From NCBI GenBank assembly GCA_964345005.1, contig CAYFPQ010000014.1, forward strand, positions 1-54,809: 54,809 nt of DNA, in the 5' to 3' direction. Position 1 is the stretch's first letter. Every line of letters begins with the position of its first letter. The position numbers and the translations under genes were made by a program. This document shows, piece after piece, positions 13,389 to 49,277 of this stretch. Below the pieces are notes generated by a model, which saw only the letters and a list, made by a program, of their open reading frames with translations, was not told where the DNA came from and ran no database searches. The DNA is from an uncultured Victivallales bacterium. GTDB taxonomy: Bacteria; Verrucomicrobiota; Kiritimatiellia; UBA8416; JABMPJ01.

Positions 13389-13397
13389 TACCGCTCC

Positions 13398-13475: not shown

Positions 13476-13644
13476 TCCGCTCTTGGTAGAGCCCCCTTGG
13501 CTGGAGTATTGCTTCGCGATAATAGGCCTGCGGGGGCGCACCCCCGCCTCCGCTCTCGGTTGATGAGGAAGCGTTCGATCTGCCAGGCTTCGGCAAACAC
13601 CTGTGCTCATCCGCATCTGGTTGCCTGCCAATGCCCTTGCATAG

Positions 13645-30182: not shown

Positions 30183-30527
30183 ATGAGACCGGCGTCTCAC
30201 GTGAATGAGACTGCTTTCGAAAGACTGCGCCATCTTTGTCCCGATCATCGTTCCGATCGTCGTCCCGATCGTCGTCGATCTGCACACAGCAATGACTCAA
30301 CATACACGGCGTGTCTTTTTGCAGACACCTTTGGCGTGTTTGAGGATCCGAATGCCCTCACTCTCGATCAGCTCGTCAGTGGCGAGGAACGCCACGTGAC
30401 GATCGGGATGGATGTGTTCGGCCGCGTTCTTGTCGTTGTGTACACGTGGCGAGGTGACAACATCCGCATCATCTCGGCACGTAAAGCCGTGCGGTCTGAG
30501 GTACGACAGTATGAAAGCGAATTATGA
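30183..30527 (+). CDS. brnT: BrnT-family toxin, N-terminal region replaced (possibly inactive)
   Basis: C-terminal two thirds are BrnT-like (VFEDPNAL...GEERHVTIG...VVVYTWRGDNIRIISARKA). The usual FEWDxxKxxxNxxKHGV start is absent and replaced by sequence containing a 12-bp tandem repeat. Confidence 0.6.
   Translation: MRPASHVNETAFERLRHLCPDHRSDRRPDRRRSAHSNDSTYTACLFADTFGVFEDPNALTLDQLVSGEERHVTIGMDVFGRVLVVVYTWRGDNIRIISARKAVRSEVRQYESEL
30241..30280. repeat. 12-bp tandem repeat x3.3
   Basis: ccgatcatcgtt ccgatcgtcgtc ccgatcgtcgtc gatc, inside the aberrant 5' part of brnT. Confidence 0.7.
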
Positions 30528-30765
30528 CTTCAGCAAGGCACGCCGCGGAGCGGTCGTGCCCCCATCGGGAAACAAGACGCGAATCACGATCCGGCTAGAT
30601 CGTAATCTTGTCGAGTGGTTCAAGTCCAAGGCAGAAGCCCAAGGTGGTGGGAACTACCAAACGATGCTCAATGATGCCCTCAGGGCATACACCGAGCATC
30701 AGGATGCATCCCTCGAGAAGCTCCTCCGCAAAGTCGTCCGAGAAGAGCTCAAGAAGGCATCCTGA
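30511..30765 (+). CDS. brnA: BrnA-family antitoxin
   Basis: ATG 30511 overlaps the brnT end by 17 nt. RITIRLDRNLVEWFK...GGNYQTMLNDALRAY matches the BrnA RHH-like pattern. Confidence 0.8.
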   Translation: MKANYDFSKARRGAVVPPSGNKTRITIRLDRNLVEWFKSKAEAQGGGNYQTMLNDALRAYTEHQDASLEKLLRKVVREELKKAS

Positions 30766-30919: not shown

Positions 30920-31339
30920 ATGAAGAAATACAGAGCTGTCATCGACACGAACGTCTTGCACGCTGGGCTCTACTCCGTCTCTGGCGCATCGTACCAGCTT
31001 CTGCGACTGATAGAGCGTGGCCGTGTGATACCTCTCCTGTCGACGGCACTCTTGTTCGAGTATGAAGAGGTGTTGAAGCGCAATCAGAGGATGCTCGGTC
31101 TGTCGGGTCGCGCAGTCAACGACGTCCTGGACGGCTTCTGCGTGCGTGGCGAATCCCGGAAAATTCATTTCCTCTGGCGCCCGCATCTTTCCGATCCGAA
31201 AGATGACCATGTTCTGGAACTGGCTGTCGCAGCCAATGGGGCAGACATCGTGACGCACAACGTAAAGGACTTCTTACACGCTTCATCATTCGGAGTTAGA
31301 ATAGTCACACCAGCACAGTTGTTAGGAGAATTGAAATGA
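30920..31339 (+). CDS. PIN-family toxin (TIGR00305-like)
   Basis: 139 aa. VIDTNVL, PKDDHVLELAVAANGADIVTHNVKDF. Confidence 0.85.
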   Translation: MKKYRAVIDTNVLHAGLYSVSGASYQLLRLIERGRVIPLLSTALLFEYEEVLKRNQRMLGLSGRAVNDVLDGFCVRGESRKIHFLWRPHLSDPKDDHVLELAVAANGADIVTHNVKDFLHASSFGVRIVTPAQLLGELK

Positions 31340-31599
31340 GCGCATTGAACCTACGACTACCCGATTCTGTTCATCGCCACATCAGAGAGATTGCGAAACA
31401 GGATGGGGTGTCCATCAACCTGTTCATCACCTCTGCAGTGTCGGAGAAGATCTCCGCACTCACGACGGAGGACTATATCGCCAACCGGGCGCAACACGCC
31501 CGCAAGGGAGCCTTCAAGAAGGTCCTCGACCGTGTTCCCAAGCGGAAACCGCTTCTCGGCGATGAGATGGCCAACAAGCCGTCGCACCATACCGCTTGA
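31336..31599 (+). CDS. RHH / HicB-family-type antitoxin encoded downstream of its PIN partner
   Basis: 87 aa. LNLRLPDSVHRHIREIAKQDGVSINLFITSAVSEKI. 4-nt overlap with the PIN gene. Confidence 0.75.
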   Translation: MSALNLRLPDSVHRHIREIAKQDGVSINLFITSAVSEKISALTTEDYIANRAQHARKGAFKKVLDRVPKRKPLLGDEMANKPSHHTA

Positions 31600-32064: not shown

Positions 32065-32715
32065 CTACAGCTTCACAGAGAAGATCGCAAAATAGAGGAG
32101 GGCCAACCCGAAGAAAATGTAGGGAAGGGCCTTTTCTATGTGTCCTTTGATGCTGTGGTGAATTCCGTGGCCGGCGATGAGGACGAGCTGCATGACGAGA
32201 GTGATGGTCAGGCAGTAGACGAAAAGCAGCACCCCGCCCGTGATGACTTCGCCCGTACCGATGGCGGCGGCCAGCGCGGCGTAGAGTACGCCGCACGGGA
32301 GGAGCGAGGCGGCGCAGCCGCTGGTGAAGAGACCGACCTTCCCGAGCAGCTTTTTGAGCAGGGGTGTGACGGCTCCGGAAACCCCGCGTTTACGTACCGC
32401 GCCGATCCCGAGCGCGAGGAACATGATGGCGGGGATCAGTGTGGAGAAGATAGGCGGCGAGGTGGCGTTGCCGCAGCAGCTCACGCCGGCCTTGTTGACC
32501 AGGAACCCGGCACCGCCGGCAATGCCGCCGAGGATCGTGTAGCCGACGATTCGTCCCAGGTTGAAAAGGGAGAGCGAGCGAATCGGGCGCTCGGAGTGGA
32601 TGCAGCTGACGGTGAGATGCAGTGCACCGCACATCCCGAAGCAGTGGGGGATCGAAATCCAACCCAGCCCGACTCCGGTAACCAGGGCCGCAATGATGGC
32701 AGCGGGTGTTGGCAT
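32065..32715 (-). CDS. DsbD_2/TauE-like membrane protein with HCxxMCG motif (putative cbb3 maturation or metal handling)
   Basis: 216 aa, about 6 TM. PHCFGMCGALH near the N-terminus. Last gene of the respiratory operon, 4 nt after the preceding ORF. Confidence 0.7.
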   Translation of the reverse strand: MPTPAAIIAALVTGVGLGWISIPHCFGMCGALHLTVSCIHSERPIRSLSLFNLGRIVGYTILGGIAGGAGFLVNKAGVSCCGNATSPPIFSTLIPAIMFLALGIGAVRKRGVSGAVTPLLKKLLGKVGLFTSGCAASLLPCGVLYAALAAAIGTGEVITGGVLLFVYCLTITLVMQLVLIAGHGIHHSIKGHIEKALPYIFFGLALLYFAIFSVKL

Positions 32716-32719
32716 CGAC

Positions 32720-32866
32720 TTATACCGGTCGCGTCAGATGCGTGAAGAAGTAGATGATACAGATAAGGACCAGCAGTCCCGCTACCAGTAGTATCAGTTT
32801 GCTGACACCGTGTTCGGCCTGGTCAACCAGGTTGGTCTCCTCGATGTCGTAGTCTTTGTCTTTCAT
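32720..32866 (-). CDS. 48-aa single-TM ORF, CcoQ-like by position (not in the ORF track)
   Basis: Hand translation: MKDKDYDIEETNLVDQAEHGVSKLILLVAGLLVLICIIYFFTHLTRPV. GAGAGG about 8 nt upstream of the ATG. Wedged between ccoO and the HCxxMCG gene. Confidence 0.45.
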   Translation of the reverse strand: MKDKDYDIEETNLVDQAEHGVSKLILLVAGLLVLICIIYFFTHLTRPV

Positions 32867-32890
32867 GGCTAGCCTCTCTGTGAGAACGCG

Positions 32891-33478
32891 CTACTCCTCG
32901 TAGTCGTTCAGCAATCTGCCATCCTTGTCTTTGCGCCAGTTCTGGTTGCGGCCGAGGGTCTGGATGAAGGCGGTCAGGTCCTCGATCTGTTGGTCGGTCA
33001 GATAGTCGAACGACGGCATGATCGAAGCCTTCTGCAGCTTGGCCTCCTCCGCGGTCTGCAACTTCTCGCCCAGGTCGCGCGGGTTCTTGAAGTGCGACCA
33101 ATGCCATTCGGACGAGTACTTTCCGCCTACGCGCGCGAGGTCCGGGCCTGTGCGGCGGGTACCTATGAAATGGGGCTTATCGTACGCGTACTCCCATCCC
33201 TTCGAGGGGGGGGCATCGACCAGGCGCCAGCCGTAGCGTTTCTGGTCCGACTTCATGTGACGGATCTGCTGGGTGTGGCAGTAGACACAACCCTCGGCCA
33301 GGTAGACCCGGCGGCCGCGCTCTTCCTGTTCGGTATAGGGGCGCATGTTTGGCTTGGGGTCCATCAGTTCGTGGTCCACGAACTTCGGAAGGACCGTGGT
33401 GCAAAATACGCCAACGGAGAAAATGCCGAAGGCCCCTACGGCGAGAATGGCAATGTTTCTTTCGGTGAGCAGTTGCAT
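32891..33478 (-). CDS. ccoO: cbb3-type cytochrome c oxidase subunit II (monohaem)
   Basis: 195 aa. N-terminal TM, single CVYCH haem site, conserved YLAEGCVYCHTQQIR context. Confidence 0.9.
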   Translation of the reverse strand: MQLLTERNIAILAVGAFGIFSVGVFCTTVLPKFVDHELMDPKPNMRPYTEQEERGRRVYLAEGCVYCHTQQIRHMKSDQKRYGWRLVDAPPSKGWEYAYDKPHFIGTRRTGPDLARVGGKYSSEWHWSHFKNPRDLGEKLQTAEEAKLQKASIMPSFDYLTDQQIEDLTAFIQTLGRNQNWRKDKDGRLLNDYEE

Positions 33479-33479
33479 G

Positions 33480-34862
33480 TCAGGCCACCTTCTCTTGTGT
33501 GGGGTTCAGGAAATAGCTCTTACCGAATACCGTCTCCCACAGATTGTAGAAGAAGAGTGCTTGCGCGAAGAGGATGAGCAGGCCGGATAGCATGCGGATC
33601 ACCCAGAAGACGCGCTGTTCGGCGAGGATCTCCAGGAACGTACGCTCGATCTTCATCCACGCCAGTCCCTGGAGCGGGCCGCTCACGAACATAGGCATGA
33701 TGAACAGCAGCACGCCGATGAAGGTGAGCCAGAAGTGCGTGTTGGCAAGGCGTTGCGAGTAGAGCGGACGCTTCACAATGCGCGGGATGAAGTAGTAGCA
33801 GCCCGCCATGGCGTAGAGCGCGAAGCAGCCGAGCACAGCCATGTGCGCGTGCGCGATAATCCAATCGGTCTTGCTGACCACGGCATTCACCGAACGCATC
33901 GAGTGGAACGGCCCTTGGAGACAGGTGGCCAGATAGTAGATCGTACCCGTGAAAAGCAATTTGGCTTCGGCCGATTTGAAGCGCGTGGCGCGCGGGGCGG
34001 TGGCGAAGGTTCCGAGGAAGTTGGTCACGACGGCGAGCACCGGTATGATCAGGCTCCACGAAAAGAGAATGGCGACCGTCTCCAGCCAGTAGCTGTTGGG
34101 GCCGTGAATCATGTGATGTGCGCCGGTCCAGCAGTAGGTGAACGCAATGACCCAGAACCCGATCAGGCTCAACTTATGTGAGTAGAGCGGGGTGTTGAGT
34201 ACCTTCGGGATAAGGTAGTAGGCTGCGGCAAGACCGCACGGCGTGAATACCAGGCCCACCGCGTTGTGGACGTAGAACCAGGTCAGGTTGGCCTGGTTCA
34301 GTCCGGCCGTGAACTGCGTGAGAATGCTGCCGGTGATGTAGACGACGGCCGTCCACAGCAGTGTTCCGACGATGTACCAGACCGACACGTAGAAGCAGCG
34401 TACCTTGCGCTGCAGGATCGTCCCCATGACATTGACCAGCAAGAGTACCCACGCCAGCACGACCAGGTAGTTAAACGGTGGCGCGATCTCGGCGTACTCG
34501 ATGCCCTGGTTGATTCCGAGCAGGATACGGACGACCCCGCCCACGGCGCCGATGTTGAAAGCGGCCCATGTGGCGTATCCCAGCCTCTCCGAGAAGAGCT
34601 TGGTGTGAAGCAGGCGCGGAATGAAGTAGAGGATCATTCCGATATCGGCTTGCAGCAGGAAAGTGAACAGGATCACATTCGTGTGGGCCTGCCGGATGCG
34701 ACCGAACGAGAAGAGCGGATGGTCCCCAAGCTCGGGGAAGAGGAATTTCAGGGCGACAAATACGCCGAGACCCATTCCCAGTAGCAGGTAGATACAGGCT
34801 GATACCATGAACAGGTATGCCGCCCGGTGCTCTCTTGGTTGCGTTTCGTTCATAGGATTCAA
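33480..34862 (-). CDS. ccoN: cbb3-type cytochrome c oxidase subunit I
   Basis: 460 aa, 12 TM. GAHHMIHGP and WIIAHAHMAVLG His ligand regions. Confidence 0.92.
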   Translation of the reverse strand: MNPMNETQPREHRAAYLFMVSACIYLLLGMGLGVFVALKFLFPELGDHPLFSFGRIRQAHTNVILFTFLLQADIGMILYFIPRLLHTKLFSERLGYATWAAFNIGAVGGVVRILLGINQGIEYAEIAPPFNYLVVLAWVLLLVNVMGTILQRKVRCFYVSVWYIVGTLLWTAVVYITGSILTQFTAGLNQANLTWFYVHNAVGLVFTPCGLAAAYYLIPKVLNTPLYSHKLSLIGFWVIAFTYCWTGAHHMIHGPNSYWLETVAILFSWSLIIPVLAVVTNFLGTFATAPRATRFKSAEAKLLFTGTIYYLATCLQGPFHSMRSVNAVVSKTDWIIAHAHMAVLGCFALYAMAGCYYFIPRIVKRPLYSQRLANTHFWLTFIGVLLFIMPMFVSGPLQGLAWMKIERTFLEILAEQRVFWVIRMLSGLLILFAQALFFYNLWETVFGKSYFLNPTQEKVA

Positions 34863-34871
34863 TCCCGTCCG

Positions 34872-36614
34872 TTACTTCGTTAATGTCCTGATATAAGCAA
34901 TAAGATCCAGAATGGTCTGGTCGCCCAGGTGACTGTGCGACGGCATGGGCGTGCCGGGAACGCCGAGAATGATGGAGTCGTAGAGGCGATCGTCCGTCAG
35001 GTCGTCGCGTTTCATGAACCTGTCGTTCAGCAGGTTGCGCGGGTAGACGTTGCCCATGGTGTAGGCATTCGGCCCTTTACCATTGGCCAGCTTGCCGTGG
35101 CAGCCTGTGCAGTGTGCCAGGAAGGCGGTTTCGCCACGCGTCGCGTCGACCTCAACAATTTCCTTTTCCGTGAGCCGGTCCGTGTCGCCAACCTTTGGGA
35201 GCGGGGCATCGATTCGCACGAACTTGCGGTCCGGGTTCTTCATGCGGCTACGCTGCACGATGAATTCCACAACGGTTTGGATCTGATCGTCCGACAGCAC
35301 TTTCTCCCACGGTGGCATGGCGGTGCCCTCGATGCCCTTCGCGATCGAGTTGGGGAAGCGATCCTTGTAGCTCTCCACAAATTGCGGTCGGGCCAGGTTG
35401 CGGGGGTAGGGGTCCAGCAGGCGGTAGTTATCGCCACGTCCCCTCATATCCATGCCGTGGCAGCTTGCGCAGTAGGTCGTATAGATGCGCGCTCCCGATT
35501 CCGCGCCCGTGTCGACGTAGTCAAGTGATTTGAGGTAGAGCAACAGGCTGTCGACCTCGGTGTCGGTCAGGTTGTAGAAGATCGGCATAACCGAGTCGGG
35601 CGCGTGATCGCGCGAGTTACGAATGTGTTCTCTGATATATGTCTCTGAACGGGCGCGGCCGACATAGGTAAGCTCGGGACCGACGTGCCCGCCCCGGAGC
35701 TGCCCGTCGGATTCACGAATCGTATGGCAGTTGATGCAGCCGCCATGACGCGGGTTGTTGCTGTCTTGGATAGCGTGAAAGACCTTGCGGCCGGCGTTAG
35801 CCGTGGCGGTCTGGAGATCCTCATAGGTGACCGTGGGCACCTTGGTGCCTATAGGCGCAAGCGCATACTCTTTGAGGCGGGTCTTGCGCTGGCTCTTCAG
35901 GTAGATCGTCAGCGGCGTTACAATGGAGTCGTCCTCCACCCAGTCGAACTTGGGCATCTTGGAACTGGCGATGTTGGCCTCCGGGTGCACGATTGATTCA
36001 CGCAGGTAATCCATGCTGAAACGAGCTCCGGCATCGGTCAGGTCGGGTCCAATCTTCCCGTCTGACACGCCATCGATGGTATGGCATGACCAGCAGACTT
36101 TCTCGACATAGAGCTGGCGGCCCCGATTGAGCTCCGGTGCCCCGGCCAGCGGCTCAGCGTTGGTGTCGTGGCAGCGGATGCAGTTGGCTTGAACCTCCGA
36201 ACCGGTCAGAAGCGGCGCCGGCCACATATGGAAGTGCCCGTGCGCATCTTCCATCGTCGTAGCTCGCCCGTTGCCGTCGTGGCAGACCACACAGCCAATC
36301 TTGCCCAGGTCATGGGGATCTGCGGCTGTGCCGGGTGCAATCGGCGGGTGGGTGGTGAGGGGCTGCTCGAAGTCGGCGGCATCGGGATTGGCGTATCCCA
36401 CATGGCAGGTTGTACAGCGGTCGATCAAAGTCTTCCCGCCGACATCGACGTTGAGTTGCTTGATGCCGATCTCGTAATTGTCCACCTCGCACATCCTCGC
36501 GTATTGGCGCTGGTGCTTAGAGAACTCGGTCCGTAACGCCTTGCCGATCGCCAGGATGACAGCCACCAGGGCAAGAAGGGATGCAGCAGCCAGGAGTTTG
36601 TAGTCTTTGATCAC
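34872..36614 (-). CDS. membrane-anchored heptahaem cytochrome c (3 multihaem-type + 4 class-I-type sites)
   Basis: 580 aa. N-terminal TM. CxxCH x7 (CTTCH, CVVCH, CIRCH, CWSCH, CINCH, CASCH, CTGCH). The last four are each followed by an MP(x) Met-ligand segment. Confidence 0.85.
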   Translation of the reverse strand: MIKDYKLLAAASLLALVAVILAIGKALRTEFSKHQRQYARMCEVDNYEIGIKQLNVDVGGKTLIDRCTTCHVGYANPDAADFEQPLTTHPPIAPGTAADPHDLGKIGCVVCHDGNGRATTMEDAHGHFHMWPAPLLTGSEVQANCIRCHDTNAEPLAGAPELNRGRQLYVEKVCWSCHTIDGVSDGKIGPDLTDAGARFSMDYLRESIVHPEANIASSKMPKFDWVEDDSIVTPLTIYLKSQRKTRLKEYALAPIGTKVPTVTYEDLQTATANAGRKVFHAIQDSNNPRHGGCINCHTIRESDGQLRGGHVGPELTYVGRARSETYIREHIRNSRDHAPDSVMPIFYNLTDTEVDSLLLYLKSLDYVDTGAESGARIYTTYCASCHGMDMRGRGDNYRLLDPYPRNLARPQFVESYKDRFPNSIAKGIEGTAMPPWEKVLSDDQIQTVVEFIVQRSRMKNPDRKFVRIDAPLPKVGDTDRLTEKEIVEVDATRGETAFLAHCTGCHGKLANGKGPNAYTMGNVYPRNLLNDRFMKRDDLTDDRLYDSIILGVPGTPMPSHSHLGDQTILDLIAYIRTLTK

Positions 36615-36615
36615 G

Positions 36616-37989
36616 CTAGTGTCCTCCCCCGTGGCTCAGCACTTCCCAGGGCATCATGAAGTCCCAGTTGGGACCTCTGAAGAGCGACCCTATAATAATG
36701 AGATAGAGCATCAGAAGCGTGACGGAGATGCAGACCAGGTTCTGCGGCCAGCGATAGCGTGAGAACCAGACGCCTGAACCCCGGATCTTCTTGTTCATGA
36801 GCACTTCGAAAGCGATCTCGACGTAGGGCACAATCATCGCCAGCAGCACCAACGCTCCCGGGATGGCCACGCCACCGATGAAGCCGTGGTAGCTGGTCAG
36901 CTCCTGCAGCCCCACGAAGTACCACGGCGCCTTGGCCGGGTTCTCCGGTTCGGCCGGGTTGGCGGGTCCTTCGAGCGGCGCGTCGAACCAGACCGCCACG
37001 AGTGACACGGCAGCCAGCACGAGCATGAAGAGCACGACTTCGCGTACGATCAGCTTGGGCCAGGCAAAGACCATCTGATCGACCGGTTCGTCGACCTTGG
37101 GCTCCTTGCCCTTTACCACCTCGACGAGCTTGTAGGAGCGGGTCGAGTGAAATGCCGAGGCATTCTTCACTGTGCCACATTCATCGACCGGGATCAGCTT
37201 GTCCTCGTCCAGCTTTTCCGGGTGGGCCAAGCCGCCATCCTTGCGGATGCGCCAGAAGTGAAGCCCGATCAGGAGCCCCATAATAGAGGGCAGCACCGCC
37301 ACGTGCAGCACGTAGAAGCGGAGCAGCGCTTCGCTGCCGACGTCCGAGTCACCGAGCAGGAACTGTCGGATTATGGCGCCGCCCGGCGCGATGCGGGCAA
37401 TCTCGGTACCAACCTTTACGCCCCAGTAGGCGAGCTGATCCCACGGCAGCAGATAGCCGGTATAGGACATGAAAACCGTGAGGAGACCGAGCACGCACCC
37501 GATCAGCCAGTTGAACTCGCGTGGCCGTGAGTAGGCGCCTGTAAAGAAGACACGGAGCATGTGCAACCAGACAGCCGCGACCATTGCGTGCGCCGACCAG
37601 CGGTGCAGGTTGCGCAGGAACCCGCCCCAGAAGATGTTGCTGCGCAGGTTGAGCATACGCTGGTAAGCGACGGGGTAGCCATCGGGCCCGATGGCGTCGG
37701 AGGGTACGTAGTGGAACATCAGCAGGATGCCGCTCACCACCAGGATCAGGAAGAGGTAGAATGCGATCAGTCCGAGTCCCAGTGTTGTGGGGAATTGCAG
37801 GCTATGCCGGTGTACCTTGACCGGCTGGATGTGCAGCAGAAAGTTGCCGAACATGATTTTGGACTTGGTCAGACCCGTCTGGTCAAAGTTGTGCCGGAAG
37901 AATGTCTTCAGGTAGACGCGGCCCAGTTCCCGGACCTTTTCCGGGACGAGCTTTTCCATAAGCTGCTTTACCTCAATCGCCATCGCCAT
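36616..37989 (-). CDS. cytochrome b (fused b6 + subunit-IV-like, extra C-terminal helices)
   Basis: 457 aa. His pairs in NLHRWSAHAMV and YVLHVAV...GLHFWRIRK. APWYF in place of PEWY. Confidence 0.9.
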   Translation of the reverse strand: MAMAIEVKQLMEKLVPEKVRELGRVYLKTFFRHNFDQTGLTKSKIMFGNFLLHIQPVKVHRHSLQFPTTLGLGLIAFYLFLILVVSGILLMFHYVPSDAIGPDGYPVAYQRMLNLRSNIFWGGFLRNLHRWSAHAMVAAVWLHMLRVFFTGAYSRPREFNWLIGCVLGLLTVFMSYTGYLLPWDQLAYWGVKVGTEIARIAPGGAIIRQFLLGDSDVGSEALLRFYVLHVAVLPSIMGLLIGLHFWRIRKDGGLAHPEKLDEDKLIPVDECGTVKNASAFHSTRSYKLVEVVKGKEPKVDEPVDQMVFAWPKLIVREVVLFMLVLAAVSLVAVWFDAPLEGPANPAEPENPAKAPWYFVGLQELTSYHGFIGGVAIPGALVLLAMIVPYVEIAFEVLMNKKIRGSGVWFSRYRWPQNLVCISVTLLMLYLIIIGSLFRGPNWDFMMPWEVLSHGGGH

Positions 37990-37995
37990 TCCTTT

Positions 37996-38529
37996 CTATG
38001 CCACCGAGTAGAAGCTGTTCTTTTCAACGCGTGTGCCGGAGTCTATCTCCACCTGTCCACCAGGCATGGCCTTTACCGGTAGCCATGCCAGCCCTTCAGG
38101 TGCGGGTCCCGCTACCACCTCGGCCTCGTTGTCGTATTGCGATCCGTGACAGGGGCACTGGTAGCCCGTGGCAACGCGGTAGACCGTGCAGCCCAGGTGC
38201 GTGCAGATGAGGGAGATTGCCGCCACCTTGCCATCGTCGCGTCGCAACACGATGACGCGCTGCTCCGGGTAGATTAGCTCGTTACCCGGCGTCGGCAGGT
38301 CGGATACCTTGACCAGGAACTTCTTGGGCGTGAGGTACGTTACGGTTGGCAACATGAACTTCGCTATACCGGCCAGCCCGGCCACTCCAGCCAGTCCGGC
38401 ACACCCCAGACCCACGCTACGCACCATGAACTCGCGCCGGCTGGTCTTCTCGGCCTCGTCAGTCTGGCGTTTCTTCAGTTCGTCTTCCATCGGTCTCTCC
38501 TTCGGGCGGCGCGTGGTGTATGTGCTCAT
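37996..38529 (-). CDS. Rieske [2Fe-2S] subunit with twin-arginine signal
   Basis: 177 aa. SRREFMV TAT motif, CTHLGC and CPCHGS boxes. Start may be ATG 38490. Confidence 0.9.
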
Positions 38530-38668
38530 CTGCGTCGTCTTCCCTGAACATCAGATACTTCGCCTCTTCGGGGTCCTTGAATTGTCCGCCGCGTACGGCC
38601 CAGATATAGAGCCAGAGGAAGAGTCCTCCCAGGGCCAGCGATCCGAAAAGCAGGATCATGTGGAGCAC
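38459..38668 (-). CDS. ccoS: cbb3 oxidase maturation protein CcoS/FixS
   Basis: 69 aa. One TM followed by [23 protein letters not shown], matching the CcoS WA(V/L)xSGQ(F/Y)DD...DDD pattern. Overlaps both neighbours. Confidence 0.8.
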
Positions 38669-40530
38669 GGCTTCACCTCCACATACGTGTCATTGAACGT
38701 GTTGACGGACATTCTGCAGGCACCGGTCGGGCAATTCTGGGCACACATTACGCAGCGCACACACTTAAGCGGATCAAACAGCATCACCGAACCGGCATCT
38801 TCGAAAGCTTCCTTCTCGCCGTATTCGGTCTTCAGCGCGGCCACCACGTTGTCGTCGCCGTCCACACGGCCTGCATCGACCATGCGCAGGCAATAGGAGG
38901 GGCAGACATCCACACAGCCGCCACACAGAATGCAGAGATTGGAGTCGAACGTGGGGTGGACATGGCACTCCAGGCAGCGTCCCGCTTGCGCCTTGGCCTC
39001 GCACTCGCTGTATTCCTGGATCACCTGCAGCGCGCGCGGATCGGCGGGATCGTAGGCATCCTCCTCGCGGTTCTTCCATTCCTCGTCGAGGTACGGCGAG
39101 TCACGGTCGTAGACATCTTCGTCGCGCCACTCGATTTCGCGGTAAGGCTTCTGGAGCGGCTTGCTGCTCAAGTAGGCGTCGATGGCCAGCGCCGCCTTGC
39201 TTCCTTCGGCCACGGCGTGGATAAAAAGCATACCGCCGTTCTGGATGTCGCCACCGGCGAAGATGCCGTCGACGGAGGTCCTAAGCGTTTCCGGATCGCA
39301 CTCGAGGGCACCGCGTTCCGTCGTCGCGAGACCCAAGGCTTTGATTGACTCGTCAAAATCGGTCTCCTGTCGCACGGCCCAAATCATCATGTCGCACTCG
39401 ATGAAGCGGAACTCGTCCTCGATGATCTCCGGGTCGAGTCGCCCGCCCTTCTTCGTGAACACGAGGTGCGGTGCGCCGTTGACTTTCTTCATCTTGAGAC
39501 CGCGCAGGACGCCATCTTCGACCACGATCTCTTCGGGCAGGGAGCTGCCGTTCAGGATCACGCCTTCTTCCAGCGCGCCAACCAGCTCGTCTTCGGTACA
39601 GACCTGTTCGTCGCCGCGCCGCCCGCGCAGGTTGCGGCTCCAGAGCGCTTCCATACAGGCCAAGTCGACCCGCTCGGCTCCGCAGCGCACGGCGGAGCGG
39701 GCGGCGTCCATTGCGGTGTCACCGCCACCATAGATCAGCACCCTCTTGCCGGACAGGTCCCACGGCTTGTAGAGATTGAAGTCGAGCAGAAACTCCATCG
39801 CGGTTACCACGTCCTGGTGGTCGGTGTTGTCGAACGGGAGCCGCTTGCCCGCCATCAGGCCCACACCGATGAAGACGGCGTCGAACTGCTCTTTGAGTTC
39901 CTGCAGCGTGATGTCCTTGCCAACATCAACACCGGTCTTCACCTCGATGAGGCCGAGGGCCAGGATCGAGTCGCACTCCGCCTGGACCACTTCACGGTTG
40001 AGACGGTTGATCGGCACGCCCTGCACGAGCTGGCCGCCGAGTACCGGGTGACGCTCGAAGACCGTGACCTTGTATCCCATGCGTGCCAGGTCGTGCGCAC
40101 AGGTCATACCGGCGCAGCCGGCACCGATGACCGCTACGGTCTTGCCGTTGGGTGCGGGCTCGGTTGTGCCGCGCGCGGAGGAGTAGGAGAGGGGTGTCTT
40201 GAGGTCGCCGGTCTCCGGGCCGTGACGTTGCGTGAGGAAGCCCTTGATGTTGCGGATCGCGAGTGGTTGGTCCACGTCACCGCGGCGGCAGGCGGTCTCG
40301 CACGGCGCACCGCAGACGACGCCGCAGATGGAAGCAAACGGATTGGTGGCGCGCGAGATCGCGTAGGCCTCGCGGTAGTTGCCCTTCGCGGTTTCGATCA
40401 GATAGCCACGCGCATCGGTACGGGTGGGGCACCCGGTCCGGCACTCCACCTCATCCTCGTAATAATCGTGATCGGGCAGCGAGACGTGGAAGTCTCGTCC
40501 TGCCTCCTCTTCAGAGTAGACTGGTTTCAT
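38656..40530 (-). CDS. soluble GltD/NfnB-like NAD(P)H flavoprotein fused to a 2x[4Fe-4S] ferredoxin domain
   Basis: 624 aa, no TM or signal. N-terminal Cys clusters (CRTGCP, CGVVCGAPCETAC), VAVIGAGCAGM and VLIYGGGDTAMD dinucleotide folds, C-terminal CILCGGCVDVCP and CVRCVMCAQNCP. Confidence 0.85.
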   Translation of the reverse strand: MKPVYSEEEAGRDFHVSLPDHDYYEDEVECRTGCPTRTDARGYLIETAKGNYREAYAISRATNPFASICGVVCGAPCETACRRGDVDQPLAIRNIKGFLTQRHGPETGDLKTPLSYSSARGTTEPAPNGKTVAVIGAGCAGMTCAHDLARMGYKVTVFERHPVLGGQLVQGVPINRLNREVVQAECDSILALGLIEVKTGVDVGKDITLQELKEQFDAVFIGVGLMAGKRLPFDNTDHQDVVTAMEFLLDFNLYKPWDLSGKRVLIYGGGDTAMDAARSAVRCGAERVDLACMEALWSRNLRGRRGDEQVCTEDELVGALEEGVILNGSSLPEEIVVEDGVLRGLKMKKVNGAPHLVFTKKGGRLDPEIIEDEFRFIECDMMIWAVRQETDFDESIKALGLATTERGALECDPETLRTSVDGIFAGGDIQNGGMLFIHAVAEGSKAALAIDAYLSSKPLQKPYREIEWRDEDVYDRDSPYLDEEWKNREEDAYDPADPRALQVIQEYSECEAKAQAGRCLECHVHPTFDSNLCILCGGCVDVCPSYCLRMVDAGRVDGDDNVVAALKTEYGEKEAFEDAGSVMLFDPLKCVRCVMCAQNCPTGACRMSVNTFNDTYVEVKPCST

Positions 40531-40909
40531 ATTCCCGTCCTTGCAGACCCACAGATGGACGCCAGCCAGCCTCGCGCGGAGCAGGGCCTAGATCCTAACA
40601 AGGCCAAACTCGAAGAATCAAGATTCATCTAGTTTATACTCCGCATTCTGGCCCGATACGCATCGGGAGCGCAAGTTCCATTGCCTATTCCCTGAGCTTC
40701 AAGTAATGATGGTCTCCTCGACCCCATTCTGGTGTGAGCAGGAGACAGGAGGCGGAACACCTTGGGTGTCTGGGTACTTCGTCATTCGTCATTCCTGCTG
40801 CTTCTCGCACTCGTGAAGTATGCAGGCGAATTCCTCTGCTTGTGGCCACCCCGCGGCAGGCGTATACTCGGGACATACTGCGAGTGAATCAGTAGGTGGA
40901 GAAACGACG

Positions 40910-46128: not shown

Positions 46129-46689
46129 CTAGTACTTCCCAATCAGCCGCAGGAACTCTGCCCGTGTGGAGGGATCGTCGTGGAAGCTGCCGAGGACGGT
46201 TGAGGTCGTCATCACGGAGTTCTGTTTTCCCACACCGCGCATCATCATGCAGAGGTGCTGGCATTCCATGACGACGCCGACGCCCTCAGCGCCGACGGTG
46301 TCCAGTATAGCACGGGCAATCTGCTCGGTCAGGCGTTCCTGGAGCTGGACCCGCTTGGCAAAGACGTCTGCGATGCGCGCGAGCTTGCTCACTCCCAACA
46401 CCTTGTCCTCGGCGATGTAACCGATATGACAGCGTCCGAAGAATGGAAGCATGTGGTGCTCGCACATGCTATATACCTCGATATCGCGCGCGATGATCAT
46501 GTTGTTCGCCTGGGCCTCGAACACGGCATTGTTGATCACCTCATCGAGGTCCATGCGGTAGCCTTCGGACAAGTGTGCCCAGGCGCGGGCCACGCGATCG
46601 GGTGTTTTGAGCAGTCCCTCTCGATCGGGATCTTCCCCGATTTCGACCAACAGTTCTTTAACCAGTTCGGCAACGCGTGCTTCGTTCAT
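46129..46689 (-). CDS. folE: GTP cyclohydrolase I
   Basis: 186 aa. VYSMCEHHMLPFFG zinc and active-site motif. Confidence 0.93.
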   Translation of the reverse strand: MNEARVAELVKELLVEIGEDPDREGLLKTPDRVARAWAHLSEGYRMDLDEVINNAVFEAQANNMIIARDIEVYSMCEHHMLPFFGRCHIGYIAEDKVLGVSKLARIADVFAKRVQLQERLTEQIARAILDTVGAEGVGVVMECQHLCMMMRGVGKQNSVMTTSTVLGSFHDDPSTRAEFLRLIGKY

Positions 46690-47111
46690 TCTTGCATGTC
46701 CTCTTGGGTTCGTGTGATGTCGACTTCAACGGTGCGTGCAAAACGGAGGGCGCCGGGCTTGGCGACGCGGACGCGTGCTTCCCGGACCCTCGAATCATCC
46801 AGACATATTTTCGCGATGCGTTCGGCGAGACGTTCCACAAGCAAGAACGATGAGCCATCGACCATCGCGATTACGTTCTTCTTGATGGCCTTGTAGTCCA
46901 CGGTGTCATCAATATCGTCCGTCTTCCCTGCCTTGCGAAGGTCGGCATGCAGCGTGATATTGATCACCACGTCCTGCTTCTCTCGCCGCTCCTCATCATA
47001 GATACCGATGATGCACCGCTGCAACAGGTCGCGAATGTGAATCTTATCCAGTGACTCTGAAGCCGGTTCCACCTGAGCGCCCTCCAGTTCTTCCCGCACA
47101 AGGTAGTCCAT
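46686..47111 (-). CDS. folB: dihydroneopterin aldolase (copy 1, coupled to folE)
   Basis: Start at ATG 47111. IHIRDLLQRCIIGIYDEER...VAKPGALRFARTVEVDITR fits FolB. 4-nt overlap with folE. Confidence 0.82.
   Translation of the reverse strand: MDYLVREELEGAQVEPASESLDKIHIRDLLQRCIIGIYDEERREKQDVVINITLHADLRKAGKTDDIDDTVDYKAIKKNVIAMVDGSSFLLVERLAERIAKICLDDSRVREARVRVAKPGALRFARTVEVDITRTQEDMQE
46750..47060. repeat. folB direct duplication, left copy
   Basis: 46813-46982 is identical to 49367-49536 (170 bp, offset 2554). Flanks are progressively diverged. Confidence 0.85.
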
Positions 47112-47181
47112 AGGGCATTTCAACGCAAACGCTCTATGCGCCGGCCGAGAATCCTCATGCTTGAGTACATCTGCCGCGCCC

Positions 47182-47210
47182 ATTATAGTTGGGGCATGAA
47201 GACCGAGCAA
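47182..47210 (-). promoter_or_regulatory. sigma-70-like promoter candidate facing folB copy 1
   Basis: On the minus strand, TTGCTC (47210-47205), N17, TATAAT (47187-47182), about 70 nt upstream of ATG 47111. A perfect -10 hexamer is unusual in this GC-rich context. Confidence 0.3.
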
Positions 47211-47411
47211 GAAGCGCGGGCCAATATGGCGACGACCATCATGCTGATGGACAGCGGCATTGCGCTGATGCGGCAGAACATCAGGCGGCGCCGTCCTGGC
47301 AACACGGAAGAACAGATCGATACCGAACTGAACGCATGGCTGTATCGCACGAGCGATCCCATTCCCGGTGATACGTCGGGATCTGTCCGTGTGCGGAGCC
47401 GGAATCCATGA
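47196..47411 (+). CDS. small helical protein, putative partner or antitoxin of the downstream NTase
   Basis: 71 aa from ATG 47196 (MKTEQEARANM...MRQNIRRRRPGNTEEQIDTELNAWL). 4-nt overlap with the next gene. Start is uncertain. Confidence 0.5.
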   Translation: MKTEQEARANMATTIMLMDSGIALMRQNIRRRRPGNTEEQIDTELNAWLYRTSDPIPGDTSGSVRVRSRNP

Positions 47412-48007
47412 CGACCATCGAGACGCTTCTCAGGCAGGTATCAGCGTTGTTCGATAAGCAGAATCGATCTTGGGCACTGGTCGGAGGCTTGGCCGTATCC
47501 GCGCGGACAGAGCCGCGCTTTACGCGCGACATCGACCTTGCATTGGCTGTTGCAACCGATTCAGAGGCCGAGCATTTGGTTCGCGATCTCGAGTCGGTGG
47601 GATTGCGCGTGCAGGCCATTGTAGAGCAGGAAGAGGTCGACCGACTCGCCACGGCACGTCTGGTTCCATCCGGGGACCCGCCACAGGGCCTCATGCTGGA
47701 TCTTCTCTTTGCTTCGTCAGGTATCGAAGTGGAAGTATGTGAGGAAGCAGAACGATTGCAGGTGATTCCCGATTGCACGATTCCAGTGGCAAGGTTACAC
47801 CATCTCATAGCGCTCAAGGTACTGGCACGCGATGATCGAACACGCCCTCAGGATGCCGCCGATCTTCAACAGCTAATGACGGTGGCACAGGAATCCGATC
47901 TGGAAGCCGCCTGTGCCTGCGTACGCCTGATTGAAGCGCGGGGATTCAATCGTTCCCGCAATCTGGTCGAAGCACTGATGAATGCCTGGCATGCGTTCAG
48001 ACCTTGA
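47408..48007 (+). CDS. minimal Pol-beta-superfamily nucleotidyltransferase
   Basis: 199 aa. VGGLAVSARTEPRFTRDIDL (G-G/S ... DxD) followed by a helical C-terminal domain. Confidence 0.72.
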   Translation: MTTIETLLRQVSALFDKQNRSWALVGGLAVSARTEPRFTRDIDLALAVATDSEAEHLVRDLESVGLRVQAIVEQEEVDRLATARLVPSGDPPQGLMLDLLFASSGIEVEVCEEAERLQVIPDCTIPVARLHHLIALKVLARDDRTRPQDAADLQQLMTVAQESDLEAACACVRLIEARGFNRSRNLVEALMNAWHAFRP

Positions 48008-48152
48008 TTCCTCCTACATCTTCGTGCCGGACAACGTGCATGAAGGCCCGGTCCTATGGGAAATGATCGGCCAGTTCGTTTCGGTGACGGGCATCGTCGG
48101 CGACCGCATGGTCCTGAACATTCGGCTGGCCAGTGCATGGCGTGATTGTTAG
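47991..48152 (+). CDS. possible 53-aa ORF bridging the two NTase modules (not in the ORF track)
   Basis: Hand translation: MRSDLDSSYIFVPDNVHEGPVLWEMIGQFVSVTGIVGDRMVLNIRLASAWRDC. Strong G/C third-position bias. Overlaps the previous stop by 17 nt. Confidence 0.25.
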   Translation: MRSDLDSSYIFVPDNVHEGPVLWEMIGQFVSVTGIVGDRMVLNIRLASAWRDC

Positions 48153-48714
48153 CTTCTTAAGCGTGCAACACGAACGGGCAACGTTGGCTTCACGGCTGGG
48201 CAAGACGGTTCATGTTTCGCCGCTTCGAATGAAGGTCGCGGCTCTACGGCAACGCTTTCCGTGCGCCTGCGCGGAGGAGATCGAAGATTGGCTCGTGGCT
48301 GTGGCCAATGCGAGAGGAGCGCAAGTGGTCATGCTGCCACATGAATCGGTATCGGCTTTCCATGCTCCGCCACTTGATGCACTGTCCTGCGAGGAGCTGG
48401 TGGTATCGATTTGCGGGCTCCAGTGTCTCGATCGGCCGCAGATGCTGAGACTGGCCGCGCAGTTCATCTCGCGAAACGCCGTGGACGCGGAAGCTTTGCT
48501 TCTGGTCGCAAGACGCGAAAGGGTCGAGCCCGTTCTTGCCGAACTCTCCAGGCAGGCGCTCAAGGTGAACCCGAACCATACGTTGTGGAGGCAGATTCAA
48601 GATGCCTTTCTCGATTACGGAGTTCGAGAGCCGCTCTTGCACTGGACTCGCTTGGCAGAGCCTCTTATGGAGAAGGGGCGGTGCAACGCCGTGTCATGGA
48701 GGCTGGTGGCATGA
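48133..48714 (+). CDS. hypothetical protein, partner of the DUF6036-like NTase (start may be ATG 48229)
   Basis: 193-aa ORF with GTG start. No recognisable motif. 4-nt ATGA overlap with the next gene. Confidence 0.5.
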   Translation: MHGVIVSFLSVQHERATLASRLGKTVHVSPLRMKVAALRQRFPCACAEEIEDWLVAVANARGAQVVMLPHESVSAFHAPPLDALSCEELVVSICGLQCLDRPQMLRLAAQFISRNAVDAEALLLVARRERVEPVLAELSRQALKVNPNHTLWRQIQDAFLDYGVREPLLHWTRLAEPLMEKGRCNAVSWRLVA

Positions 48715-49277
48715 CGCATCCCCAACGGATACTGGCGACGTTGGATTCAGCGCTCACAAGCCGTGTAGAACTGACTCTTTACGGGCGTGCGGCGCTGTTC
48801 CTCGGTTATGAAGATGCTCCGGCGCAATACGCCTTGAGTCTTGATGTTGATGCCGTGATGTGGATCGGTCAGGCGGAGGAACTGAGTGAAACAACCGACT
48901 TCTGGGAGGCCGTGGACAAGACGAATGCCGAATTGGCTGGGGATGGTCTGTATGTGAGCCACTTCTTCACCGAAGACCAGGTTGCCCTGCGTCCGACTTG
49001 GCGAGAACACCGGGTTGCCTTGGTGGGCGACTGGCTGCATCTGGATCTCTTCAGGCTTGGAGACCTCGACTTGCTGCTCAGTAAGCTCATGCGGAACGAC
49101 CCCTTGGATTTTTCCGATGCACAATTCATTATCGAACGCGCCGGATTGACCGAGGAGAACGTACGAAAAGCCATCGCGGATGTACGTTTGCCCGAGTCCG
49201 TGGAAGTACGCGATGAATTCAGAGATGCTTCCGCGCAGCTTCTGTCGTCACTTGCCGCTTCGAACAGATCCGAATAG
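48711..49277 (+). CDS. DUF6036-like nucleotidyltransferase-fold protein
   Basis: ATG 48711 within track ORF 48411-49277. LTLYGRAALFLGY...ALSLDVDAV resembles the G(S/R)xA...DxD NTase signature. Confidence 0.62.
   Translation: MTHPQRILATLDSALTSRVELTLYGRAALFLGYEDAPAQYALSLDVDAVMWIGQAEELSETTDFWEAVDKTNAELAGDGLYVSHFFTEDQVALRPTWREHRVALVGDWLHLDLFRLGDLDLLLSKLMRNDPLDFSDAQFIIERAGLTEENVRKAIADVRLPESVEVRDEFRDASAQLLSSLAASNRSE

Follow-up and report, generated by a model that had tools for sequence, protein, structure and literature searches.

Rieske/cytochrome b (R/b) complexes of the bc type and cbb3-type haem-copper oxidases are usually encoded at separate loci, and this is so even for the bc1-cbb3 supercomplexes, which have cytochrome c1, CcoP and a mobile or anchored cytochrome c, a PEWY-type bc1 complex that uses ubiquinone, and no flavoprotein. 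In the actinobacterial bcc-aa3 and ACIII-oxidase systems a multihaem cytochrome c links complex III to the oxidase, with no soluble carrier in between. Clustering of ACIII with oxidase genes has been noted (PMC3362086). Here we analyze a block of nine genes in a 54,809-nt stretch of DNA (the window; positions 1 to 54,809 of contig CAYFPQ010000014.1, assembly GCA_964345005.1) from an uncultured Victivallales bacterium, in which a GltD/NfnB-like iron-sulfur (FeS) flavoprotein, an R/b complex, a heptahaem cytochrome c and a cbb3-type oxidase are encoded together.

The R/b complexes of anammox bacteria that carry an NAD(P) oxidoreductase have been proposed to perform quinol-driven NAD(P)+ reduction, which is unproven. 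In Kuenenia such complexes have Rieske potentials of +303 and +335 mV, their subunits are stated to co-migrate, and an AlphaFold3 model traces a path from haem bN/cN to an extra haem b (held by His43 of each Kuste4571 monomer) and on, by way of four FeS clusters, to FAD (Hauser et al. 2025, PMC12954380). The ‘APWY clade’ of cytochrome b was defined by Kao & Hunte 2014 (PMC4122944), with no member then characterized, and its Rieske proteins were predicted to range from Mid+ (S-F, about 260 mV) to high potential (S-Y, >260 mV). According to Dibrova et al. 2017 (PMC5600118), oxidoreductase genes lie near subfamily G cytochrome b genes ‘in many other cases’, and the long cytochromes b of clade G′ fall in ‘large conserved operons … of an unknown function’, possibly the operon in the window; the word cbb3 does not occur in that paper. 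The APWY clade and subfamily G with its clade G′ share with our locus the APWY motif, co-occurrence with NAD(P)/FeS oxidoreductases and a long fused cytochrome b, and the two papers classify sequences and are not known to give either a cbb3 linkage or a function. Papers on Chlamydiae (PMC9816063) and on Pontiella (PMC7356697) list PetBD and CcoNO(P) separately and leave the flavoprotein unmentioned. Full-text searches, limited to literature outside key subscription papers, found no description of a combined R/b-flavoprotein-cbb3 unit.

The nine open reading frames (ORFs) run from 40530 to 32065 on the minus strand (program-made ORF list) and encode, in order, the flavoprotein, CcoS, a Rieske protein, a fused cytochrome b, the heptahaem cytochrome, CcoN, CcoO, a 48-aa protein and a DsbD_2-family membrane protein. 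Their junctions, taken from the ORF coordinates, measure -13, -71, +6, +1, +9, +1, +24 and +4 nt, and the 71-nt overlap of the CcoS and Rieske ORFs shrinks to 32 nt if the Rieske protein starts at its next ATG (Met14). The coordinates and all eight junctions given in a first-pass annotation of this DNA were reproduced exactly from the ORF list, and Pfam and NCBIfam scans agree with its nine gene identities. That annotation also held that the junctions leave no room for internal promoters. A scan of 31.5-41.2 kb for sigma-70-like promoter and terminator consensus sites gave chance-level, uninformative results, the two promoter-like sites called (3.0 expected) both being on the opposite strand and the terminator-like sites numbering eight (6.0 expected), so the argument against internal promoters is one of gene spacing, and operon status is based on spacing together with conservation. 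The sole gap of the block roomy enough for a promoter is the 289-nt divergent intergenic region upstream of the flavoprotein gene (40531..40819); the consensus scan called no minus-strand sigma-70-like site in it, nor does it contain an FNR/FixK-type box at up to two mismatches. Across the window such boxes number 25 against 15.9 in shuffled sequence, a marginal excess. Because the same block recurs in dozens of genomes, the nine-gene arrangement is far beyond chance.

Its conservation was examined by a flavoprotein profile scan of one genome per GTDB species, which gave 573 confirmed relatives; the best 80 loci were searched by tblastn with all nine window proteins, and six earlier loci bring the total to 86. 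Five homologue contigs, at 54%, 55%, 45%, 39% and 38% flavoprotein identity, had been fetched first. The first-pass annotation had staked its proposal on synteny of the flavoprotein gene with the R/b and cbb3 genes in relatives, and this synteny is what was found: the gene adjoins R/b genes in 77 of the 86 loci, 42 of which also have CcoN, and the combination is widespread, not unique to the window. The closest flavoprotein relatives (81-90% identity) come from metagenome-assembled genomes (MAGs) labelled Lentisphaerae, Victivallales or Verrucomicrobia, and the next tier, at about 54% identity, from Kiritimatiellales/Pontiella. The three closest relatives, with proteins 81-88% identical, keep all nine genes and have none of the flanking genes of the window, which marks the block itself as the conserved unit. 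The order flavoprotein-CcoS-Rieske-cytochrome b-multihaem c-CcoN-CcoO-small ORF is present in cultured Pontiella sulfatireligans and in Chitinivibrionales, Planctomycetota and Chlamydiota MAGs. The order is permuted in Acidobacteriota, where the flavoprotein gene follows ccoO and does not precede the Rieske gene; a Solibacter MAG, for example, reads (cytochrome b)-multihaem c-CcoN-CcoO-small ORFs-flavoprotein-DsbD_2-CcoG-x-CcoI.

Carriers of the cbb3-linked form are Lentisphaerota, Kiritimatiellota, Chlamydiota (Waddlia, Parachlamydiaceae, Protochlamydia), Planctomycetota, one MAG labelled Bacteroidota and many Acidobacteriota (Bryobacteraceae, Pyrinomonadaceae, Vicinamibacteria, Chloracidobacterium). 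At least 17 R/b-adjacent loci with at least 5 kb readable downstream have no CcoN, the rest having too little flank; this cbb3-less form is found in Nitrospirota, Chloroflexota, Myxococcota, Ignavibacteria, Poribacteria, Binatota and others, with variable P-side content. The proposed flavoprotein-R/b-cbb3 unit is therefore conserved, but the flavoprotein, since it also stands beside clusters without cbb3, is primarily tied to the APWY R/b clade, and the cbb3 linkage is one variant of a modular system. A reciprocal survey of metagenome contigs, seeded with the cytochrome b, found the flavoprotein in 25 of the 36 loci having at least 3.2 kb upstream; the misses mostly had a cytochrome b of at most 41% identity, or lay on Acidobacteria-type contigs cut before the downstream position. 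Where both flanks were readable, four loci had the flavoprotein and CcoN, nine the flavoprotein only, four neither, and none CcoN without the flavoprotein. Nine of the 86 loci have no R/b genes, five being on truncated contigs and four forming one Armatimonadota group. These four (L018, L028, L038 and L040) make up a Capsulimonadaceae flavoprotein group; L040 is labelled Janthinobacterium lividum and clusters tightly with the Capsulimonadaceae loci, its contig being probably mis-binned. In an Ignavibacteria MAG (L067:15407-19558) a molybdopterin oxidoreductase and a four-cluster FeS subunit follow flavoprotein-Rieske-cytochrome b-multihaem c in place of cbb3, which suggests use of the module with other, possibly electron-donating, periplasmic redox enzymes.

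The first gene of the block encodes a 624-aa FAD/NAD(P)-binding FeS flavoprotein with a GltD/NfnB-like fold (38656..40530, minus strand; Fer4_20, Pyr_redox_2 and C-terminal Fer4_7), soluble in that a simple hydropathy count finds no hydrophobic or transmembrane (TM) segment. It scores 386 bits against NF009410, under the cut-off of 516, and its closest PDB sequence matches are the NfnABC large subunit, StnC, NfnI-L and GltD. An AlphaFold2 model, a monomer giving fold-level information (pLDDT 79.7), yields top Foldseek matches that agree with these (9bov_A, 8oh5_C, 9n5u_A and 5jca_L, with probability 1.00 and query TM-score 0.58-0.65), and the fold is that of the GltD-like NADP(H)-binding subunit of Nfn/Stn transhydrogenases; dihydropyrimidine dehydrogenase (DPD) and GltD rank behind the Nfn/Stn large subunits. 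The cluster-ligand cysteines are invariant in 14 homologues, and from their number four [4Fe-4S] clusters are predicted to lie between the FAD and the surface of the protein. An RCLxC motif relocated to residues 518-522 completes the N-terminal two-cluster domain, and a 2x[4Fe-4S] ferredoxin domain lies at the C-terminus; the same relocated-motif arrangement appears in the printed alignment with the NfnABC large subunit 9bov_A, and both NfnABC and Stn large subunits have the motif and a ferredoxin domain after the flavin domains. NfnB/NfnI-L, the NfnABC large subunit, StnC, GltD and the N-terminal module of DPD all share the fold and cofactor set, but in the Nfn, Stn and GltD systems the partner is not a membrane cytochrome b, and the operon has no NfnA, HydBC-like or GltB gene; Pfam scans found no NfnA or NfnBC/HydBC-like partner subunits among the nine genes or their neighbours.

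The window also has a genuine gltBD pair, whose GltD served as an internal control and shows the 624-aa flavoprotein to be a distant paralogue, with 26% identity and a permuted N-terminal motif; the flavoprotein has neither the canonical RCxxC…CxxxCP order of GltD at its N-terminus nor gltB as a neighbour. The label ‘GltD-type’ in the first-pass annotation consequently stands as a description of fold and not of function. In a neighbour-joining tree rooted on the window GltD (without support values) the R/b-linked flavoproteins lie far from GltD, and the cbb3-linked ones form two coherent groups, a PVC (Planctomycetes-Verrucomicrobia-Chlamydiae) type and an Acidobacteriota type. An Arg-rich insertion of about eight residues, ALWSRNLRGRRGDEQ, sits on the predicted nucleotide-binding strand (window 39610-39660, residues about 291-307); it is common to the window flavoprotein, its Lentisphaerota relatives and the homologue P0024, and the AlphaFold2 pLDDT is below 50 there.

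The Rieske [2Fe-2S] protein (37996..38529, minus strand; PF00355) is b6f-like and carries a twin-arginine translocation (TAT) export signal, one TM helix by hydropathy count, and the boxes CTHLGC (box I) and CPCHGSQY (box II), satisfying the CxHxGC and CxCH pattern expected of such a protein. Its orthologues are only 157-170 aa long, so that the true start is probably Met14 (38490) or later. The closest PDB matches are b6f-type Rieske proteins and the Kuenenia anammox entries 9rk4 and 9rk3, with 9rk4 the second-best. Among 76 orthologues the RR (TAT) motif, CTHLGC, CPCHG and the box Cys and His residues are all invariant; in box II, 73 have the Ser, and the Tyr is kept in 49 and replaced by Phe in 27. 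A high potential is predicted for the window protein from this Ser-Tyr signature. The 457-aa cytochrome b (36616..37989, minus strand; PF13631 and PF00033, with NCBIfam ExtP and ExtQ matches) fuses a b6-like to a subunit IV-like part. Its haem bL/bH ligands, H129/H229 and H143/H244, are all four present in 70 of 71 orthologues, and its Qo motif, APWY, is invariant, so that the locus has the ligands and Qo motif of an R/b complex in the APWY variant. An extra N-side histidine before helix A, His53, is found in 69 of the 71, and the n-side loop WRIRKDGG is invariant in the family. The haem cn site (CxGG) of b6f/b6c complexes is absent from the window cytochrome b, which reads TLGL there, and Asp35 of subunit IV is replaced.

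There is no cytochrome c1 or f subunit; in that gene position stands the membrane-anchored heptahaem cytochrome c of 580 aa (34872..36614, minus strand; PF00034 x4, PF13442 x4 and PF14522). Motif and hydropathy counts give it seven CxxCH motifs and one N-terminal TM helix, laid out as the helix, three c7/NrfH-like haems and four class I domains, the last of which are CcoP-like: over residues 370-580 there are matches to class I domains of the CcoP type (PF13442, 128 bits; TIGR00782, 64 bits, under the cut-off of 180). Weak PDB matches are to CcoP, CcoO and a Kuenenia dihaem protein (6h5l_B). Exactly seven haem motifs occur in 38 of the 43 cbb3-linked orthologues, and most of the other five ORFs are much shorter and possibly truncated. 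The heptahaem protein probably replaces both cytochrome c1/f and CcoP. The first-pass statement that CcoP is missing from the window thus needs qualification: Pfam scans of the other large window ORFs find no separate ccoP gene, but CcoP-like domains are present within the heptahaem protein. The same scans bear out its report of no cytochrome c1 and no CcoG, CcoH or CcoI in the window; relatives, however, append ccoG, DsbD_2 and ccoI. In environmental Chlamydiota (L005, L020-L053) the heptahaem protein reaches about 1,080-1,410 aa and keeps seven CxxCH motifs, and CcoO is enlarged to about 370-445 aa with one CxxCH; the extra sequence of both is without Pfam annotation.

The oxidase is a haem-copper oxygen reductase of the C-family (cbb3-type), with CcoN (33480..34862, minus strand; PF00115 (COX1), 273 bits) as its catalytic subunit. 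At 284 bits CcoN does not reach the TIGR00780 equivalog cut-off of 583, as for a divergent subclade, and it aligns to CcoN of P. stutzeri (3mk7_A, E 8.5e-66) and to 9g6b_A (E 1e-66), with NorB matching at only E 4e-8. In the printed alignment, read by eye, the equivalents of H60, W203, H207, Y251, H257, H258, H345 and H347 are all kept, which accounts for the C-family ligands of the low-spin haem b, the b3 haem and CuB and for the helix-VII Tyr, and by these residues CcoN is a genuine though divergent C-family oxygen reductase. The monohaem subunit II, CcoO, follows after a 1-nt gap (32891..33478, minus strand; PF02433 FixO, 138 bits) and has one CxxCH and one TM helix; it is likewise divergent (TIGR00781, 128 bits against a cut-off of 200.65). 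CcoP is dispensable for or absent from some C-family enzymes, and for this reason the absence from the window of the separate dihaem CcoP of a canonical ccoNOQP arrangement does not exclude membership of this family. P. sulfatireligans F21, which carries an orthologous operon (L001), is oxidase-positive when grown anaerobically (PMC7356697).

Three small or accessory genes complete the block. The second gene encodes a 69-aa CcoS/FixS-like single-TM protein (38459..38668, minus strand), which scores 41.5 bits against PF03597 (cut-off 23.1) and 32.3 bits against TIGR00847 (cut-off 28.35). CcoS is a cofactor-insertion factor for cbb3 oxidases, and in the tblastn survey it was found only in loci of cbb3-linked lineages and in none of the cbb3-less ones. 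Its acidic C-terminal tail is unusually long (69 aa in all against 45-59 aa in relatives) and overlaps the Rieske ORF at 38459-38529. The CcoQ position is taken by the 48-aa protein (32720..32866, minus strand), which has one TM helix and no Pfam or NCBIfam match and is 50-75% identical in the three closest relatives; ORFs of 46-67 aa, also without a Pfam match, follow ccoO in the Pontiella, Chitinivibrionales, Planctomycetota, Chlamydiota and Solibacter loci. The last gene encodes a polytopic DsbD_2-family membrane protein with an HCFGMCG motif (32065..32715, minus strand; PF13386, 88.7 bits). It adjoins ccoG and ccoI in relatives and recurs downstream of cbb3-linked clusters, and its product probably helps in biogenesis of the oxidase or in handling metal for it.

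For comparison with anammox R/b complexes, a locus (L169) was found through the Rieske fragment of PDB 9rk4, to which its Rieske protein is 83% identical; the fragment matched relatives of at most 85% identity and not Kuenenia itself, and another contig (L167) ends at the Rieske gene. L169 has the order Rieske-flavoprotein-cytochrome b-subunit IV-multihaem c-octahaem protein like hydroxylamine oxidoreductase (HAO). The window cytochrome b is 41% identical to that of L169 (E 9e-67), and the two flavoproteins share 33% identity in an alignment of 608 aa (E 9e-89) that is collinear in all domains, which substantiates the link to anammox R/b-associated GltD-like flavoproteins drawn in the first-pass annotation. 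By these alignments the window module is homologous to the anammox R/b module but is a different variant of it. With R/b-2 (Kustd1480-85) and R/b-3 (Kuste4569-74) of Kuenenia stuttgartiensis it shares a b6f-like Rieske protein, a homologous cytochrome b with the N-side His, a predicted four-cluster and FAD flavoprotein, an anchored multihaem c in place of cytochrome f/c1, and adjacency to a high-potential terminal reductase. It differs in that its cytochrome b is fused with subunit IV and has no CxGG (L169 has CMGG where the window protein has TLGL), whereas anammox bacteria have a split cytochrome b and a 5-TM subunit IV; in that the flavoprotein gene comes first and not second; in its partner, the O2 reductase CcoNO as opposed to an HAO-like octahaem protein; and in the nucleotide strand, which reads CME where R/b-3 has YRR. 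The host of the window operon is a heterotrophic PVC bacterium, that of the anammox complexes a chemolithoautotroph. His53 aligns with His59 of L169, which is His43 of Kuste4571 if L169 numbering starts at Met17, and the equivalent of Kuste4571 Arg247 falls in the WR(I/V)RKDGG motif (R249/K250). An apparent match in His-to-Arg spacing (203 against 204) was rejected as evidence for the equivalence of His53 and His43, being coincidental in proteins that differ by indels, so that the equivalence now stands on the alignment. In the neighbour-joining tree the anammox flavoproteins fall outside the cbb3-linked groups, nearest to those of cbb3-less Planctomycetia. At a second anammox-related locus (L168:1274-3104) the flavoprotein is called as ORFs of 72 aa and 535 aa, suggesting a frameshift or assembly error, and its nucleotide strand reads C-L-E, like the window family and unlike the Y-R-R of L169.

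Other known systems share parts of this arrangement. For the interaction of ferredoxin and ferredoxin-NADP+ reductase (FNR) with the b6f complex in cyclic electron flow, a stromal or N-side NADP-linked flavoprotein is envisaged to exchange electrons with the n-side haems, transiently and through haem cn; at our locus, by contrast, the flavoprotein is a dedicated, operon-encoded FeS protein and haem cn is absent. In the bc1-cbb3 supercomplexes (CIII2CIV) of Pseudomonas aeruginosa and Rhodobacter capsulatus an R/b complex is likewise reported to feed cbb3 through membrane-attached c haems, but the window has one operon and a single heptahaem protein, probably for both c1 and CcoP. The bcc-aa3 and ACIII systems share the principle of a hard-wired quinol:O2 path and differ in having an A-type oxidase, a different or (in ACIII) unrelated quinol oxidase, and no NAD(P)-linked subunit.

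We consider the architecture by itself – a single R/b-cbb3 unit to which an NAD(P)-linked flavoprotein is attached on the N-side – to be probable, and hold it with considerable confidence. Our preferred explanation goes further, to a hard-wired quinol:O2 supercomplex in which the low-potential branch leads to NAD(P)+ reduction by bifurcation; with the direction included, this is a tentative preference that falls a little short of an even call. The data show the gene content, the cofactor-binding residues, the homology to the anammox R/b module and the conserved synteny; that the proteins associate physically, that the genes are co-transcribed and which way the NAD(P) branch runs are what we infer here from sequence. 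The nine genes would then specify one membrane-bound machine and its assembly factors. Menaquinol would be oxidized at the APWY-type Qo site of a dimeric R/b complex, and the high-potential electron would pass from the Rieske protein through the anchored heptahaem c and CcoO to CcoN and O2; conservation of seven haems even in the 1,100-1,400-aa chlamydial versions is suggestive of a wire of fixed length. The low-potential electron would cross the membrane through haems bL and bH and, instead of merely being recycled at a conventional Qi site, would go on, possibly by way of an extra bis-His53 haem at the dimer interface, to the four [4Fe-4S] clusters and FAD of the flavoprotein. In sum, two quinol plus the O2-side acceptor and NAD(P)+ would give two quinone and NAD(P)H, the strongly exergonic O2 branch paying for the reaction, and the wire would in principle be reversible. 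CcoS, the 48-aa protein and the DsbD_2 protein would act in oxidase assembly or as small subunits.

Cultured Pontiella, with the same operon, makes only menaquinones MK-6 to MK-9 (PMC7356697). We estimate the potential available to the low-potential electron as 2 x (-80) - 260 = about -420 mV, which would suffice for NAD(P)+ at -320 mV and leave room for part of the membrane potential as well. NAD(P)+ reduction is favoured because the high-potential Rieske signature occurs in menaquinone users, because the N-side is remodelled (no haem cn, Asp35 replaced), and because the module pairs with a high-potential terminal reductase wherever the partner is identifiable. Several considerations weigh against it. 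The operon and its cbb3-linked relatives are so far known as gene sequences; the high Rieske potential is predicted from two residues only; and the extra inter-monomer haem is an AlphaFold3 prediction made in another organism. A working Qi site, if present, would send electrons to quinone and not uphill to NAD(P)+. In four Armatimonadota loci no R/b genes lie within 10 kb of the flavoprotein gene. The nucleotide-binding strand has C-[LM]-E in the flavoprotein family where the anammox R/b-3-like protein and 9bov_A have Y-R-R, and either NAD or NADP may accordingly be the cofactor; a specificity for NADH, considered on the basis of C-M-E for Y-R-R, was rejected, the window GltD, which we take to be NADPH-dependent like characterized GltDs, reading Q-L-E there. 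Finally, the lifestyle of the hosts (Lentisphaerota, Kiritimatiellota, Chlamydiota, Acidobacteriota), which are organoheterotrophs or fermenters and have no evident need to drive electrons backwards to NAD(P)+, favours the opposite direction, NAD(P)H oxidation.

In that opposite direction the flavoprotein would be a built-in NAD(P)H dehydrogenase and the complex a self-contained NAD(P)H:O2 oxidoreductase, with electrons running from NAD(P)H through FAD, the four FeS clusters, (the His53 haem) and haem bH to quinone on the N-side, and the resulting quinol being re-oxidized at Qo toward O2. We regard this as unlikely, but as a contender to be taken seriously. Such a complex would resemble a type II NADH dehydrogenase (NDH-2) plus bc plus cbb3 and be useful to fermentative anaerobes in scavenging O2 and re-oxidizing NAD(P)H. 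The reaction would be thermodynamically downhill and need no special Rieske potential, and GltD and DPD, of the same fold, physiologically oxidize NADPH through a linear FeS chain. The heterotrophic hosts and the invariant n-side loop WRIRKDGG speak for it, as does the observation that the obligate anaerobe Pontiella seems to consume or exclude O2 in gradient tubes and is oxidase-positive (PMC7356697); moreover, Dibrova et al. view assemblies of cytochrome b and oxidoreductase as ‘membrane-anchored dehydrogenases’ (discussed in PMC5600118). It leaves unexplained, however, why menaquinone users have the high-potential Ser-Tyr/Ser-Phe Rieske signature and why, in the two cases with an identifiable partner, the neighbour is a high-potential terminal reductase (cbb3 here, HAO-like in anammox bacteria); the canonical Qn elements haem cn and Asp35 of subunit IV are absent; and Chlamydiota already have Nqr, and some of them Nuo, for NADH input (PMC9816063). 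Alternatively, the operon could encode an ordinary co-transcribed branch, in which a conventional Q-cycle R/b complex and cbb3 are co-expressed, possibly as a supercomplex, and the flavoprotein, whether an independent cytoplasmic enzyme or a partner in regulation or redox sensing, does no more than share the promoter. The four Armatimonadota loci with no R/b genes nearby fit this, as does the Acidobacteriota order in which the flavoprotein gene follows ccoO and is not ahead of the Rieske gene; bc1 and cbb3 of Pseudomonas and Rhodobacter are reported to associate without a flavoprotein. Yet adjacency to R/b outlasts both gene-order shuffling and exchange of the P-side partner in more than ten phyla, the two coherent cbb3-linked groups in the neighbour-joining tree (no support values) suggest long co-inheritance, and the N-side His, invariant in the family and to our knowledge absent from b6 and bc1 sequences, points to a dedicated interface. 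With the homologous anammox subunits also stated to co-migrate (PMC12954380), we judge such a branch improbable.

Two further explanations concern the oxidase itself, and we give each of them very little credence. The flavoprotein might serve oxidase biogenesis, as an NAD(P)H-dependent donor for the cupric reductase CcoG or in haem or copper insertion with CcoS. The ccoS gene directly follows the flavoprotein gene here and in PVC relatives, the flavoprotein gene precedes DsbD_2-ccoG-ccoI in Solibacter-type loci, and we know of no established physiological electron donor of CcoG. The window has no ccoG, however, and the R/b loci with at least 5 kb read downstream but no ccoN, of which there are at least 17, have no ccoS or DsbD_2 match either; they come from Nitrospirota, Chloroflexota, Ignavibacteria, Poribacteria and similar lineages, the anammox-type locus being a further case. 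Because the flavoprotein accompanies R/b clusters that are without cbb3, it is not taken to be an oxidase maturation factor, and this role was rejected. Equally remote is the idea that the terminal enzyme is mainly a reductase of nitric oxide or of another acceptor than O2, which would make the block a denitrification or detoxification module. Sub-threshold scores that place the enzyme in a divergent C-family clade (CcoN 284 against 583 bits, CcoO 128 against 200.65) could be so read, and cbb3 oxidases have some NO-reductase activity. The three CuB His and the helix-VII Tyr (the Y251 equivalent) are nonetheless conserved, and the NO-reductase reading was rejected from these active-site residues of CcoN; in addition, NorB matches at E 4e-8 against 1e-66 for CcoN, the cbb3-specific factor CcoS is encoded, and a cultured carrier is oxidase-positive.

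A flavoprotein-R/b module hard-wired to an O2 reductase would be accessible in cultured lineages, which include Pontiella, Waddlia, Parachlamydiaceae, Chloracidobacterium, Bryobacteraceae and Solibacter. Quinol bifurcation to NAD(P)+ has been an open matter since the anammox proposal; anammox bacteria grow slowly, and the high-potential partner reaction is uncertain there. O2 is a simple and controllable acceptor, with which the reaction and its direction should be measurable in membranes of cultured carriers, and the complex would be an attractive target for cryo-electron microscopy. A single unit would also revise metabolic reconstructions that treat ‘PetBD’, ‘CcoNO(P)’ and ‘FAD-dependent oxidoreductase’ as unrelated, the flavoprotein also going under the names formate dehydrogenase beta or glutamate synthase beta in some sources. 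If bifurcation is correct, more ions would be translocated per O2 when Nqr or Nuo re-oxidizes the NAD(P)H, to the advantage of microaerobic or O2-limited PVC bacteria, environmental chlamydiae and Acidobacteriota, and the mechanism proposed for anammox bacteria would be shown to be general. That O2-driven, quinone-based bifurcation is widespread, as an ‘extended Q cycle’ returning electrons to the pyridine-nucleotide pool, seems to us a doubtful, though live, possibility. If electrons instead run from NAD(P)H to O2, the block would specify a one-piece respiratory chain, which could explain O2 consumption by PVC ‘obligate anaerobes’.

Elsewhere in the window, a type III glutamine synthetase (341-2398), gltB (2496-7061), the true gltD (7058-8491; it shares 4 nt with gltB) and, on the minus strand, a GlnA-type glutamine synthetase (16763-18127) make up, over 341-8491 and 16763-18127, a complete ammonium-assimilation set, with the true gltBD pair 30 kb from the flavoprotein gene. 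Directly downstream of the operon, and on the strand opposite to it, are two toxin-antitoxin pairs, BrnT/BrnA (30183-30765) and a PIN-domain toxin with a HicB/Arc-like antitoxin after it (30920-31599), neither of which flanks the block in the closest relatives. Just past tRNA-Thr (8537-8612) lies a small island of defence-like or mobile appearance (9223-13691), which includes a Fic/DOC protein (9223-10308), on the minus strand an AbiEii/AbiEi type IV toxin-antitoxin pair (10692-12400), and a fragment that matches only the C-terminal half of the AEP primase domain of TOTE systems (12316-12984). Finally, a 258-nt direct repeat, 95% identical between its copies, is present at 46794-47051 and 49348-49605. 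The copies are 2,554 nt apart, and each has an additional 19-nt match immediately upstream; the folB ORF (46686-47210) contains the first copy, and two ORFs between the copies (47281-47817 and 48133-49277) have no Pfam match. The interval looks like an insertion that duplicated part of folB, and the palindrome GTGATATTGATCAC is present in both copies.

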